Source: a virus (lineage: Duplodnaviria; Heunggongvirae; Uroviricota; Caudoviricetes; Ackermannviridae). Taken from it: a DNA stretch of 31,224 bases. The notes below the pieces were generated by a model. The model saw only the letters and a program-made list of their open reading frames with translations, searched no databases and was not told where the DNA came from. The DNA lies in IMG/VR virus record IMGVR_UViG_2974516482_000001, positions 1-31,224 of that record, one strand, 5' to 3'. A program made the translations under genes and the position numbers. Shown in pieces: positions 1 through 2,428 of the stretch; within the stretch, counting starts at the first letter, position 1, and each line of letters opens with the position of its first letter.

Positions 1-650
1 CATCAAAGTTGTGTCCAAACGTTACAACTCGCATTCAATGTCTTCGTCACGCCGAATACTTGTCCTCTACGCTCGGACCAAACGAGGCTGGCCGACAGAA
101 ACATAACACCACTCATCACTAGAGCGAGGATGTGGTTGATAGCCACGATGTTACATCTCTGTCGAAGAGTGATCACACTTGTCAGATGATCACTGTTTTG
201 CGAACTCGAGAATACTGCGCCTGTCTCGGGTTTCCCCTTAGTTCGGCCTCTCATTGTTCATCCGGTCAGGGAGCTACCCTTGATGACCAGCTTATATTGA
301 GATCTTCGCCAGCGCCCACCAGTGTCTAGAATGTGTAGGCGTCGAGGTCTGCAAGGCATTGCCCTATTTCATACAACGCTCTCTCAAGTACGCAAATCGA
401 AGTTCTCTGGGCTTAACAGGTTCGACCCAACATGTTGTATATCGCCTAACTTACTCATGGGACGGCCACTTCTGTGTACAGACCTTGAGGGTTAAAAGAT
501 ATACCCAAAGAACTTCGATTTGCGTTGTGGGGGCAAACCCCCACACGGCTACTTCTTTGACAGGGATTGCTAGCCCTGGGGATTCCACTGTTTAAGGCTT
601 TATCCCATAACGCCTGAGGCGCGTTTTAACTTATTGAAGCTTGCATAACT
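1..650 (-). ncRNA. Putative large structured ncRNA of unknown class (continues beyond the window start)
   Basis: No credible ORF. 22-bp stem 390-411/504-525 and 18-bp stem 93-110/147-164; their 5 non-Watson-Crick positions are G.U only on the minus strand. Further helices at 168-175/187-194, 264-288, 526-545 and 561-578. Pseudoknot-type pairings 371-377/434-440 and 383-388/484-489. Boundaries are approximate. Confidence 0.6.
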
Positions 651-656
651 GCAAAC

Positions 657-1020
657 TGATGCGCTGTGAGACACATCTGGGAGGGCACTCTGTGGATTCA
701 TTTTACAGCATCCCGTATAGCGGATACCGACCTCGATCAAGTGCCCTCTCAGATGTCGGCGGGAGCTTATTAATCACACCCTCCCGCCTATTTTTAGTGC
801 GCCGAATTTTGTTATGAGGAATCGGAAGACCTCACTGACTTATAGGCTATTACGCCGCCATCAGAACTTCGGAATCATTAGCAGTTATTTGCTTGGTCAG
901 TTTCTAAAAACCCGCAAAGTCGCATCCAACGAGAACGAAAACCTGTTTGAGTCCTAAACCTACCTGTCTTGGTCTCACATCGCTATGAGTGGCCAGGACT
1001 CAAACAGCTTGCCGTTCAGT
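657..1020 (-). ncRNA. tmRNA-like RNA (mRNA-like domain with tag frame; tRNA-like domain non-canonical)
   Basis: Minus strand 882->850 reads GCT AAT GAT TCC GAA GTT CTG ATG GCG GCG TAA (then TAG) = ANDSEVLMAA**. It is preceded by AAAUAACU and has no start codon or SD. Helix over the stop (GGC-GUAAUA-GCC), pseudoknot-like element at ~802-834, promoter at 1027-1052, length ~364 nt. Confidence 0.65.
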
Positions 1021-1026
1021 GAGTTA

Positions 1027-1052
1027 ACTATACTTTGTAACCCGTTATTGAT
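1027..1052 (-). promoter_or_regulatory. Putative early-type promoter ATCAAT-N14-TATAGT driving the tmRNA-like RNA (TSS ~1020)
   Basis: Same spacing as the TTCAAT-N14-TATAAT motif at 2403-2428; AT-rich upstream tract. Confidence 0.6.
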
Positions 1053-1070
1053 AAAACCTTTTATTTTTGT

Positions 1071-1137
1071 TGACGAGGGTGTGGAATCGAACCACACTTC
1101 TGAGCGCTACCCCGTGTCACCAATGCACCACCTCGCC
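1071..1137 (-). ncRNA. tRNA-like element with truncated anticodon arm (not a decoding tRNA)
   Basis: Minus strand GGCGAGG-TG-GTGCATTGGTGACAC-G-GGGTAGCGCTC-AGAA-GTGTGG-TTCGATT-CCACAC-CCTCGTC-A: 7-bp acceptor stem, D-loop GG, canonical TTCGATT T-loop, 11-nt anticodon arm instead of 17, no encoded CCA. Confidence 0.75.
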
Positions 1138-1539
1138 ATCGATTTGCCGGAACTTACGCATCCGGCCTCGTCCTGTCGGTGTTCTTCTGAATCCGGGAAG
1201 ATCAGCAGGAACTATGAATCAAGTTAATTCAACCAACAGGAATCCTCGTGTTGCCCTTTGACGCAACATTATGAACCCTCTATGAAGACTCATAATGTTG
1301 TCGGCGTGATGGAGATTAGCGCCCCCGACCTCCCCTTATATGTTGGTGTCGACTTGCCAACGGGGTGCTCTCTGATTCTGAGATAATCACGCTACAACAG
1401 GGAGTTTCGTTCTCCGACGGTCAAGTGCGTCCACTGACACCAGCGAGGTGGATATTGACTTATGGAGCCGGAGTCCTCGTCCTAGGACTGTGCTTGGCCT
1501 CAGCCTTTACACCGCTGGTCGCCCGACTCTTTACACCAT
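1138..1539 (-). ncRNA. ~400-nt structured RNA with RNase P RNA-like layout (degenerate core)
   Basis: GAGGACUCCGGCUCCAUAAG (1459-1478) resembles GAGGAAAGUCCGGGCUCCAUAGG. CACCGACAGGAC..GCCGG (1161-1181) resembles CACGACAGAACCCGG. P4-like UCCGGC/GCCGGA, P3-like hairpin 1501-1517, CAGAGAGCACCCCG (1361-1374), 11-bp stem 1264-1274/1290-1300. Comparison is from memory of E. coli M1 RNA. Confidence 0.4.
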
Positions 1540-1546
1540 AAAATTT

Positions 1547-1575
1547 ACTATACTACAGCCCAGCTAATTTGAAAA
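1547..1575 (-). promoter_or_regulatory. Putative promoter TTTTCA-N17-TATAGT (TSS ~1539)
   Basis: Sigma70-like spacing; same TATAGT -10 hexamer as the 1027-1052 promoter. Confidence 0.55.
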
Positions 1576-1592
1576 GTCCTCTCCCCTTTGAG

Positions 1593-1739
1593 CTACACTG
1601 CCCACAGCAGTGCGGACGAACCTTCACTCAAAACCGGATGCGCCGAAGTGGGCAACTGTTTACCGGACTGATCGGGTAGACCCAGGAGAGAGCAGGTAAT
1701 CCCGATCAGGAGGATGAGGAGTAACATCATGTAAAACAT
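1593..1739 (-). CDS. 48-aa small hydrophobic protein (MFYMMLLLILLIGITCSLLGLPDQSGKQLPTSAHPVLSEGSSALLWAV)
   Basis: Below the ORF-track cutoff and translated by hand. Strong SD GGGAGGG 6 nt before ATG; N-terminal ~20-aa hydrophobic helix; TAG at 1593-1595. Confidence 0.55.
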   Translation of the reverse strand: MFYMMLLLILLIGITCSLLGLPDQSGKQLPTSAHPVLSEGSSALLWAV

Positions 1740-1796
1740 AGTGTTCCCTCCCTTCCATGCAACTAACTTTACTACAATTATTTATTGAATAAAGCG

Positions 1797-2366
1797 TTAT
1801 TTTAACACTTCTAACTTCACAACACGACGCAGAAGGTAAACATATTCGCCAGCAGCTTCATGCGTCATATAATGGGTAGAAGGTGTGGAATGATTGTTCT
1901 GGGTTTCTTTTAACCCAACGCGTTCAGCCCAACCATTAATAGAGTTCCCATAGAAACCGATAATCGCGCCGAAATAAATGCGCTGGCTCTCTGGTTCTAA
2001 AATATAGTTGACAGTGAAACAGATGTCAGAACGAATAGACTCCAGTTTCATACCAACACGACCTTCGGAGAATTCGTTACGAACATATAAATGACGGAAA
2101 CGATCGCGCCGCGCTTGTGATGATTCTTCCAATTCTTGTCGGAGTGAAGAAGTTACGTCAATATTAAATGAAAATGTTGGATTTTGTAAATCGGAACGGG
2201 CCAACTCTAACGCAGATTCAACAACGCGACGGAAATTGATACTTTTACCTGTCAGGCGTTTCACTTCATCTGTGATTGTTCCAAAAGGGATTTTCGTGGC
2301 GCGTTCCCCTTCGTATTTTGCCAATAAAGGAATAATGTGTTTCATGATTGCTGTGTTAATGTGCAT
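1797..2366 (-). CDS. Hypothetical protein, 189 aa
   Basis: Long ORF with SD GAGG and its own upstream promoter; no family recognised. Confidence 0.85.
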   Translation of the reverse strand: MHINTAIMKHIIPLLAKYEGERATKIPFGTITDEVKRLTGKSINFRRVVESALELARSDLQNPTFSFNIDVTSSLRQELEESSQARRDRFRHLYVRNEFSEGRVGMKLESIRSDICFTVNYILEPESQRIYFGAIIGFYGNSINGWAERVGLKETQNNHSTPSTHYMTHEAAGEYVYLLRRVVKLEVLK

Positions 2367-2402
2367 TCCGGAGCCTCACCGAATTGATTAAATGTCTCCA
2401 TT

Positions 2403-2428
2403 ATTATATTGGAGATACGTTTATTGAA
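2403..2428 (-). promoter_or_regulatory. Promoter TTCAAT-N14-TATAAT
   Basis: Exact motif on the minus strand; matches the motif I recall being described for Vi01-like phages. Confidence 0.75.

Follow-up and report, generated by a model that had tools for sequence, protein, structure and literature searches.

What does a phage keep in 1.75 kb of DNA that holds no gene of ordinary length? The question arises at the beginning of the window analysed here, a stretch of 31,224 nucleotides (nt) that makes up the first 31 kb of a 159-kb linear record (IMGVR_UViG_2974516482_000001) of a Salmonella phage of the genus Kuttervirus (Ackermannviridae). Positions 1-2700 are 93-99% identical to many Kuttervirus phages, e.g., Mansal, GG32, Det7, and CBA120. 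Positions 1-1750, read on the minus strand, lie between the gene of a 189-amino-acid protein (upstream) and the phage transfer RNA (tRNA) genes (downstream). The record breaks within this block, so to speak in mid-locus, and the tRNA genes for Met, Asn, Ile, and Ser stand at the opposite end of the record on the same strand; the same arrangement of tRNA genes was seen in SeKF_64 and CBA120. The GC content of the block is about 0.49 vs. 0.41-0.43 in the flanking genes. In existing annotations of relatives the 1.7-3.3 kb at this place are blank or given to "hypothetical proteins" of 30-70 amino acids. A previous interpretation made from the letters of the DNA, referred to below as the sequence-only reading, had described about 1.75 kb without credible long open reading frames on the strand opposite the virion genes, and this was confirmed, since no frame exceeds 83 amino acids and the strand is opposite to that of the baseplate genes. 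It had further proposed a set of RNAs resembling RNase P RNA, a tRNA without anticodon, and transfer-messenger RNA (tmRNA). Our answer to the question is that, following two small protein genes, the minus strand of positions 1-1750 carries a cluster of phage RNA genes, and that one of these RNAs appears to be derived from the message half of tmRNA and carries an arm antisense to the tmRNA of the host. The block is kept across the genera of Ackermannviridae, with 72-77% identity as far as Taipeivirus and Agtrevirus, and several of its units show covariation; in this respect the proposed cluster of conserved, structured, and unannotated phage RNA genes holds.

Neither Rfam at gathering score nor ARAGORN returned anything in the window. 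A permissive Rfam scan of positions 1-2800, accepting matches up to E=10, gave a sub-threshold match to tmRNA_permuted at 1000-850 on the minus strand. A sub-threshold search had been recommended in the sequence-only reading, and the tmRNA expectation was the one it supported, while the models for RNase P, tRNA, GOLLD, and ROOL had no match up to the same limit. Sub-threshold matches to the permuted, alpha, and beta tmRNA models were obtained independently in three further carrier phages, mutually unrelated. The best scores were 20.7 bits in the window and 28.3 bits in phage Sa179lw, against a gathering score of 47 for RF04321; no Rfam tmRNA model reached its gathering score on the module, and neither the window nor any of 25 related loci gave a tmRNA call with ARAGORN. 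The tmRNA_permuted alignment exposed a frame reading GCU AAU GAU ... GCG GCG UAA UAG. The features of the module around this frame are as follows.

745-947, minus strand: module core with antisense arm, tag frame, stop-codon helix, and two pseudoknots (alignment of 56 non-redundant copies).
853-882, minus strand: tag frame of 10 codons, ANDSEVLMAA, without start codon; the resume context, U at -5 and A at -4, is present.
847-852, minus strand: tandem stop codons UAA UAG.
835-861, minus strand: helix over the stop codon, similar to helix 5 of tmRNA, CUGA (861-858) with UCAG (838-835).
797-834, minus strand: hairpin Pb and pseudoknot PKa, loop CCGA with downstream UCGG.
758-801, minus strand: hairpin Pc and pseudoknot PKb, CGCAC with GUGUG in the Pc loop.

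The core (947-745) comprises about 200 nt, and the module extends over approximately 1020-660 when the framing units described further below are included. The structure was read from the sequences and then tested on the 56-copy alignment against 500 shuffles and slid controls. In the alignment 95.7% of the cells were paired, with compensatory change in 16 of 22 pairs. None of the 500 shuffles reached the observed pairing values, and the slid controls paired at 26-48%. The helix over the stop codon was paired in 98.6% of cells, three of its four pairs showing compensatory change. Variant pairs of PKa were CCAG/CUGG in HK620, CCAA/UUGG in CHB7, and AGUCG/CGACU in P1-like copies, and compensatory variants of PKb and Pc occurred in Erwinia, Pantoea, Aeromonas-labelled, P1-like, and 7-11 copies. 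The tag is consequently followed on its 3' side by two pseudoknots with compensatory changes, which is the flanking arrangement typical of tmRNA. No PK1 belonging to the module was found upstream of the tag, where the arm occupies that place.

The tag frame had no insertion or deletion in the 56 copies and was always 10 codons long, although its flanks have both. Among 99 unique copies there were 18 different tag peptides, all following one pattern, A-N/K-D/E-x-x-(V/M/F/Y)-(L/M/R)-(A/M/V)-(A/V)-A. Codons 1, 2, 3, and 10 (Ala, Asn/Lys, Asp/Glu, Ala) varied at the third position only, the stop after the tag was always UAA or UAG, and U at -5 and A at -4 before the resume codon were kept. We take these two bases to correspond to U85 and A86 of E. 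coli tmRNA, which help to set the resume frame. An in-frame start codon (AUG, GUG, or UUG) is absent. By these patterns, the tag is under selection at the protein level. The fixed length, the third-position variation, the invariant stop, the resume context, and the missing start codon together argue that the tag is translated by the tmRNA route, of which the frame appears to carry the signature. Conservation of the frame as a peptide would also suit an ordinary small gene with normal initiation, in which the likeness to tmRNA is a relic, but we give this hardly any credence: besides the start codon, a ribosome-binding site is lacking too, an in-frame UAG seven codons upstream closes the frame on that side (by eye), and frame and context follow tmRNA rules. 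The middle and the end of the tag differ within one genus, ANDSEVLMAA in the window vs. ANDNTFLAVA in CBA120 (locus L127), and each of these types was also met in unrelated phage families. Such sharing suggests that module variants have been exchanged by recombination.

The module is by no means confined to Kuttervirus. In distant BLAST searches positions 796-942 recurred at 71-84% identity in unannotated gaps of unrelated phages, and one of the recurring copies was used as query for the following counts. The module was found, unannotated, in 767 phage records and in at least 119 IMG/VR contigs. It was present in 656 of 5426 complete E. coli genomes (approximately one in eight), at 150 chromosomal and 554 plasmid places. 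Among plasmid records it was found in 603, 587 of them non-mobilizable, and one that was inspected was IncY and P1-like. The carriers are Ackermannviridae, T1-like Drexlerviridae, N4-like Schitoviridae, Felix O1-like Ounavirinae, Chaseviridae, phage 7-11, lambdoids of the HK620 type, and P1. The module was not found when 28 genomes from the genus to which a Yersinia locus belongs, and 151 from the family of a Rodentibacter locus, were searched by BLAST; the only matches were short chance ones in coding sequences.

A tmRNA needs a tRNA-like domain which can be charged, and in the module there is none. The tmRNA-like unit of the sequence-only reading was thus upheld as to its tag frame (882-853 with stops at 852-847) and its lack of a chargeable tRNA-like domain, but not as to its size of about 360 nt; nor does it have the damaged tRNA-like domain that had been assumed, as the module of about 200 nt has no such domain in any carrier phage family. 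In Pollock, CS01, and Sa179lw a promoter, a terminator, or the next gene limits the RNA to 250-500 nt, without T arm. The whole records of Sa179lw, CS01, and HK620 contained no match to a tRNA model at E<=1. From the sequences, the module seems to derive from the message half of enterobacterial tmRNA and to have been built headless; lacking the tRNA-like domain by which a tmRNA is recognized, it should not be classed as one.

Could the missing half be supplied by the phage in a separate piece? A candidate stands close by.

1071-1137, minus strand: tRNA-like element of 67 nt with a 7-bp acceptor stem, D arm with GG, T arm with UUCGAUU, and no encoded CCA.

This is the anticodon-less tRNA-like unit of the sequence-only reading, found at 1137-1071 with a 16-nt substitute in place of the anticodon arm. 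It is annotated as tRNA-Ala in SeKF_64, and its acceptor, D, and T stems covary in UPM2146. It had no match to RF00005 up to E=10 and no ARAGORN call, and its fold is no more stable than those of shuffles. A split tmRNA of phage parts only, in which this element is charged and acts in trans with the tag module, would be in keeping with its acceptor stem, T arm, and D-loop GG, with the 54 nt that separate the two on the same strand at constant spacing in Kuttervirus, and with a G-U pair that the window and CBA120 share at 2:71, or at 3:70 if the register is moved by one base. We nevertheless consider such a pair of phage RNAs very improbable. The G-U pair is G-C in four relatives, SeKF_64, UPM2146, L072, and L107, which means that a conserved G3-U70 alanine identity is absent. 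The element is missing in IME250, L090, and L110, and a different tRNA-like element replaces it in L043. Most carriers lack a counterpart of the element: T1-like phages and HK620 have the module but no tRNA-like gene in their records, and in the N4-like Pollock the tRNA genes are four ordinary ones (Leu, Arg, Met, Pro), none of them an alanine-type or anticodon-less element. Moreover, complementarity between element and module is limited to one 9-mer, and a promoter candidate, P2, stands between them. By its distribution the element looks like an optional cassette rather than a fixed partner of the module, and it most likely serves as a processing signal. Signals of this kind are the mascRNA of MALAT1 and the tRNA punctuation of polycistronic transcripts. 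The likeness is that the 67-nt element and the T-arm cassettes stand between RNA units, where cuts by RNase P and RNase Z would set the ends; the difference is the missing anticodon arm of the 67-nt element.

The partner indicated by the module itself is the tmRNA of the host. The conserved 5' part of the module was found to be complementary, not similar, to E. coli tmRNA. Three segments form this arm.

935-944, minus strand: H1, antisense to host tag codons 3-6, E. coli tmRNA nt ~97-106.
918-924, minus strand: H2, antisense to the resume codon and preceding bases, E. coli tmRNA nt 86-92.
905-918, minus strand: H3, antisense to the 3' side of PK1 and the A-rich linker, E. coli tmRNA nt 68-81.

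The complements are collinear, with 10 of 10 positions at nt 97-106 (in E. coli phages), 7 of 7 at nt 86-92, and 13 of 14 at nt 68-81. Taken together, the arm (944-905) covers host nt ~65-108, a stretch that runs from the 3' side of PK1 through the linker and the resume codon and into the tag as far as codon 6. The tag-coding region is also the target of the classic anti-ssrA oligonucleotide. In the window, H1 has 9 positions able to pair with either the AAC-UAC or the ACC-UAC variant of the host (by eye). When each copy was aligned in antisense with the whole 363-nt tmRNA, the best alignment started at nt 65-80 and ended at nt 104-132 in 56 of 56 copies, with 22-40 Watson-Crick matches per copy; z was at least 3.3 in 55 of the 56, with a median of about 7. 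The score of the arm against the tag region of the phage itself was at background. The 1.8-kb region was also compared, in 45-nt segments and both senses, with ssrA, rnpB, ssrS, and ffs, and among these 704 comparisons the sole outlier was segment 940-896 against ssrA in antisense. Ounavirinae, phage 7-11, Chaseviridae, and P1 have different arm sequences directed to the same tmRNA site. A Pantoea phage has AAG in the arm where coliphages have UAG, matching CUU of a Pantoea tmRNA. The target site is almost invariant in Enterobacterales, and the arm is kept across hosts for this reason. The complementarity is extended, conserved, and directed to one accessible site of tmRNA, as is expected of an antisense RNA.

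On balance, and without great firmness, we favour the reading that the module docks on host tmRNA, thereby masking or replacing the host tag template. The grounds are that a frame selected for coding needs a charged tRNA-like partner, that the phages supply none, and that the arm points at the tmRNA of the host. The arm would base-pair with the accessible message region of host tmRNA; pairing would mask the host resume codon and the first tag codons, and would tether the phage tag template beside the tRNA-like domain of the host and SmpB. Rescued ribosomes would then either add no host tag or be switched to the phage template, adding ANDSEVLMAA. The stronger form, that a mobile phage RNA re-programmes ribosome rescue by docking on host tmRNA and using its charged tRNA-like domain and SmpB, so that rescued ribosomes read the phage tag, is put forward tentatively. 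The sequences themselves show the structure, the constraint on the tag as a coding frame, the lack of a tRNA-like domain, and the antisense match; that the module is transcribed, pairs with tmRNA in the cell, and has its tag used is what we infer from them.

The antisense match also agrees with a pure inhibitor, whose arm would shut down host tmRNA, either by covering it or by making it a target of RNase III, and whose tag is never translated. In cell-free systems the action of tmRNA can be suppressed with complementary DNA oligonucleotides (PMC3384345), and there is a natural precedent in the phage RNA of the DS6A type, which consists of the tRNA domain only and is reported to inhibit tmRNA (PMC4131195). 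Pure inhibition is the main rival reading but in our opinion rather unlikely, as is the role it leaves for the rest of the tmRNA-like RNA, which would do no more than stabilise the molecule or imitate tmRNA in order to bind its partners. The coding signature of the tag, namely third-position variation, fixed length, invariant stop, and the residue class at position 6, is hard to explain in this way, and the resume context with U at -5 and A at -4 is kept as well.

Several observations weigh against docking on host tmRNA. As the target hardly varies, covariation of arm and target rests on the single Pantoea case. The ACC-UAC variant of tmRNA occurs in one genome of the family, and the arm of the window matches this variant no more closely than it does the tmRNA of E. 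coli. Duplex energies of arm and tmRNA are moderately extreme compared with shuffles (z from -2.1 to -4.7); this test is weaker than the alignment test because A/U-rich shuffles also pair with tmRNA. Cofolding of whole molecules was inconsistent, with intermolecular pairs differing from phage to phage, by a method that cannot model pseudoknots. In this phage H1 is part of the base of the unit A stem, so the arm may need processing or unfolding prior to pairing. The switch of template assumes that a template tethered in trans can enter the mRNA channel. Public reads speak neither for nor against expression: the one run labelled as RNA had a flat depth over the whole phage (~43-49x over 8 kb), and three raw single-cell RNA runs contained zero phage reads.

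The places of the module in other genomes are those where transcription and excision would occur, to judge from its neighbours: tRNA gene arrays, the lambdoid late leader, and the stretch behind the ban promoters. In phage P1 (NC_005856, 68791-69081; locus L314, 1110-1400) the unannotated module begins at the end of the annotated "dicF-like region." The C1-controlled promoters P1ban and P2ban precede it, and tRNA-Asn and tRNA-Thr follow. In HK620 (L005, 2001-2177) and a prophage of E. coli 55989 (L006, 3001-3179) its place is the late leader, where the Q-dependent pR' with qut precedes it and the terminator follows, and lysogens could make it within the short constitutive transcript. Ounavirinae have it between true tRNA genes, and in phiEa21-4 and CHB7 (L283, 250-667; L285, 419-669) it fills the sole large gap of the tRNA gene array, a position in which tRNA processing enzymes would set its ends. 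A further fold was noticed by eye downstream of the module in the 55989 leader (L006, 3240-3375). It is tRNA-like, without an ARAGORN call, and has a 7-bp closing stem UGUGGUG/CGCCACA, a D arm GCUC-AAUGGC-GAGC, a T arm GCCGG-UUCGAUU-CCGGC, and an insert of about 75 nt where the anticodon arm would be.

Published phage tmRNAs comprise complete ones, in mycobacteriophages and Bacillus phage G, and the DS6A form with the tRNA domain only (PMC4131195). The 2025 update of the tmRNA database lists 79 unique phage sequences and is built on ARAGORN, Rfam tmRNA models, and BLASTN to known tmRNAs (PMC11915505). In the literature we found no description of a message-only phage RNA directed at tmRNA. Compared with one-piece tmRNA (SsrA, RF00023), the module shares the length and pattern of the tag (ANDENYALAA), the Ala resume codon with U at -5 and A at -4, tandem stops in a stem like helix 5, and H-type pseudoknots after the tag. 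It differs in having neither acceptor stem, T arm, nor D loop, which means that it cannot itself be charged or bind SmpB and EF-Tu; in its size, ~200 nt vs. 363; in the arm antisense to host tmRNA; and in tags that end in LMAA, LAVA, or LAAA instead of ALAA. The coding piece of two-piece tmRNA (RF04321, RF01849, RF01850) is likewise a separate message RNA pairing with an RNA that supplies the tRNA-like end, and the two-piece models gave the best, sub-threshold Rfam matches of the module (20.7-28.3 bits vs. 47). There, however, the pieces come from one gene and pair via the acceptor and P2 helices, whereas the proposed partner of the module is a complete host tmRNA, paired at its message region. 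The mini-tmRNA of mycobacteriophage DS6A (PMC4131195, PMC11915505) is also a phage-borne half of tmRNA proposed to interfere with trans-translation of the host, but it is the opposite half, a tRNA-like domain without tag, thought to titrate SmpB and not to pair with tmRNA. The laboratory anti-tmRNA oligonucleotides (PMC3384345) are antisense to tmRNA and stop it from releasing stalled ribosomes; they are synthetic DNA, inhibit only, and bring no replacement template.

As tmRNA is a universal quality-control RNA of bacteria, replacement of its template in trans would, if true, be a new viral way of taking over a host RNA machine. The module stands unannotated in hundreds of phages, including laboratory workhorses (P1, HK620, CBA120, and Felix O1-like, T1-like, and N4-like phages), and with about one in eight complete E. 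coli genomes carrying it, the proposal is directly testable with existing strains.

The module is framed on both sides by units of another kind.

933-1017, minus strand: unit A, immediately ahead of the arm; a 39-nt insert enclosed by a long stem, 1017-995 paired with 955-933 (inverted repeat I2).
673-756, minus strand: unit B, immediately behind the module; a variable insert enclosed by a stem, 756-740 paired with 689-673 (inverted repeat I3).
661-983, minus strand: long-range pairing of the unit A loop (983-972) with the 3' flank of unit B (672-661), 11 of 12 positions complementary (inverted repeat I6).

The stems of both units covary between phage families, and their inserts are exchanged even among close relatives. 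The equivalent of the unit A stem, for instance, is GGUAAGAGCA/UGCUCUUUCC in one phage family vs. GUUUGGGCA/UGCUCAAAC in another. The 60-nt insert of unit B (694-755) is replaced within the same stem by 331 other bases in a near relative from a metatranscriptome run, and CBA120-type phages have a unit B insert with two T-arm motifs. On these comparisons the stems appear to be fixed frames for exchangeable inserts. Relatives carry a different pair of loop and flank at the same places, ACACUUCGAU/AUCGAAGUGU, and pairing of the unit A loop with the flank of unit B is predicted to close the module into a ring. Unit A was also considered as a permuted tRNA-like domain and rejected, being a generic cassette of stem and insert whose insert varies among relatives and which has no acceptor stem. 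An arrangement of acceptor stem and CCA, as in the second acceptor piece of a two-piece tmRNA, was looked for in unit A and was not found; the T arms present in some inserts stand in tRNA order, not in permuted order (by eye).

Two larger units complete the block.

1141-1458, minus strand: conserved structured RNA of ~320 nt, the stretch previously called RNase P-like, ending in hairpin 1167-1146.
190-530, minus strand: second conserved structured RNA of ~330 nt (525-196), with a 16-bp stem 525-504 with 411-390 (inverted repeat I1).

The first (1458-1141) is nearly invariant between genera and has a predicted long-range helix; 9 of its 89 predicted pairs show compensatory change, and the sole large length difference is an insertion in UPM2146, placed at a hairpin loop predicted from the consensus. 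It had no Rfam match up to E=10 and no match in E. coli genomes. Its proposed likeness to RNase P RNA was not supported, since neither RF00010 nor RF00011 matched up to that limit and similarity to rnpB was at background; the best rnpB score, 36 (z 2.9), fell at 1020-976, outside the claimed stretch. The second RNA (525-196) has another domain closed by a 13-bp helix, and 23 of its 85 predicted pairs show compensatory change among 7 sequences from 3 genera. In vB_SenA_SM5 a "reverse transcriptase domain-containing protein" is annotated over 525-196; this annotation looks spurious. Both RNAs and the 67-nt element are specific to Ackermannviridae, and from the comparisons they seem to be separate structured RNAs outside the named classes. 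GOLLD and ROOL are likewise large structured phage RNAs next to tRNA genes and of unknown function; they differ from this block in hosts and architecture, and their models (RF01998 and RF03087) had no match up to E=10. The "empty" regions beside phage tRNA genes hold several conserved structured RNAs outside known classes, and in phage therapy genomes the annotation of this 1.7 kb is either intergenic or a set of spurious small ORFs.

That the whole block consists of passive decoys, which mimic RNase P RNA, tRNA, and tmRNA and soak up nucleases of host defence or processing enzymes, was the decoy or sponge reading offered earlier. Shapes like those of tRNA and tmRNA do exist here, and T-arm cassettes are common in the equivalent arrays of other phages, yet we find the decoy explanation improbable: likeness to RNase P is absent, and a decoy needs neither a directed antisense arm nor a frame selected for coding. 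Arm and frame point instead to docking, followed by blocking or rewriting of the tag. Nor did the related idea prevail that each unit has lost the part required for its canonical function, because the tmRNA-derived unit is widespread, appears to have been headless by construction, and has acquired a new part, the arm antisense to host tmRNA. Should ribosome rescue be re-programmed as outlined above, the surrounding cluster would be a toolkit of further RNAs acting on the RNA machinery of the host.

Upstream of the RNA units and between them the following promoters and genes were recognized.

1547-1575, minus strand: sigma70-like promoter candidate P1, TTTTCA, 17 nt, TATAGT; kept between genera.
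1027-1054, minus strand: sigma70-like promoter candidate P2, for the module transcript, TTATCA, 16 nt, TATAGT; kept between genera.
1593-1739, minus strand: gene of a 48-amino-acid membrane peptide with a strong ribosome-binding site, GGAAGGGAGGG.
1797-2366, minus strand: gene of the 189-amino-acid protein, phrog_3788 (E 4e-102), a PHROG family of unknown function.

The sequence-only reading had counted on at least two promoters and had placed a 48-amino-acid membrane peptide and a 189-amino-acid protein upstream on the same strand, and all of these were recovered, the promoters as two conserved minus-strand candidates. The stretch of P2 (query 995-1067) is kept even in a Limestonevirus of Dickeya. 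The ribosome-binding site GGAAGGGAGGG (1737-1756) is unusually long, purine-rich, and invariant across genera. The hydrophobic N-terminal half of the peptide is kept as protein, and the peptide belongs to phrog_8415 (E 2.5e-33), also a PHROG family of unknown function. Neither of the two proteins matched a Pfam family.

A few observations concern the edges of the block. Just after P1, positions 1459-1546 exist in two unrelated versions among close relatives, one shared by the window and locus L024 and the other of the CBA120 type; both flanks are nearly identical between the versions, i.e., a mosaic replacement. Positions 1-189, which form the 3' end of the block as read on the minus strand, are conserved within Kuttervirus only. 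Among their features are an inverted repeat of 16 nt (93-108 with 149-164) and, at 127-109, a weak terminator-like site. Records labelled as Pseudomonas phage Pa-sanjiao (~97% identity) and as an Enterococcus phage match the region as well, including MN871475.1, and the host labels of these records are probably wrong.

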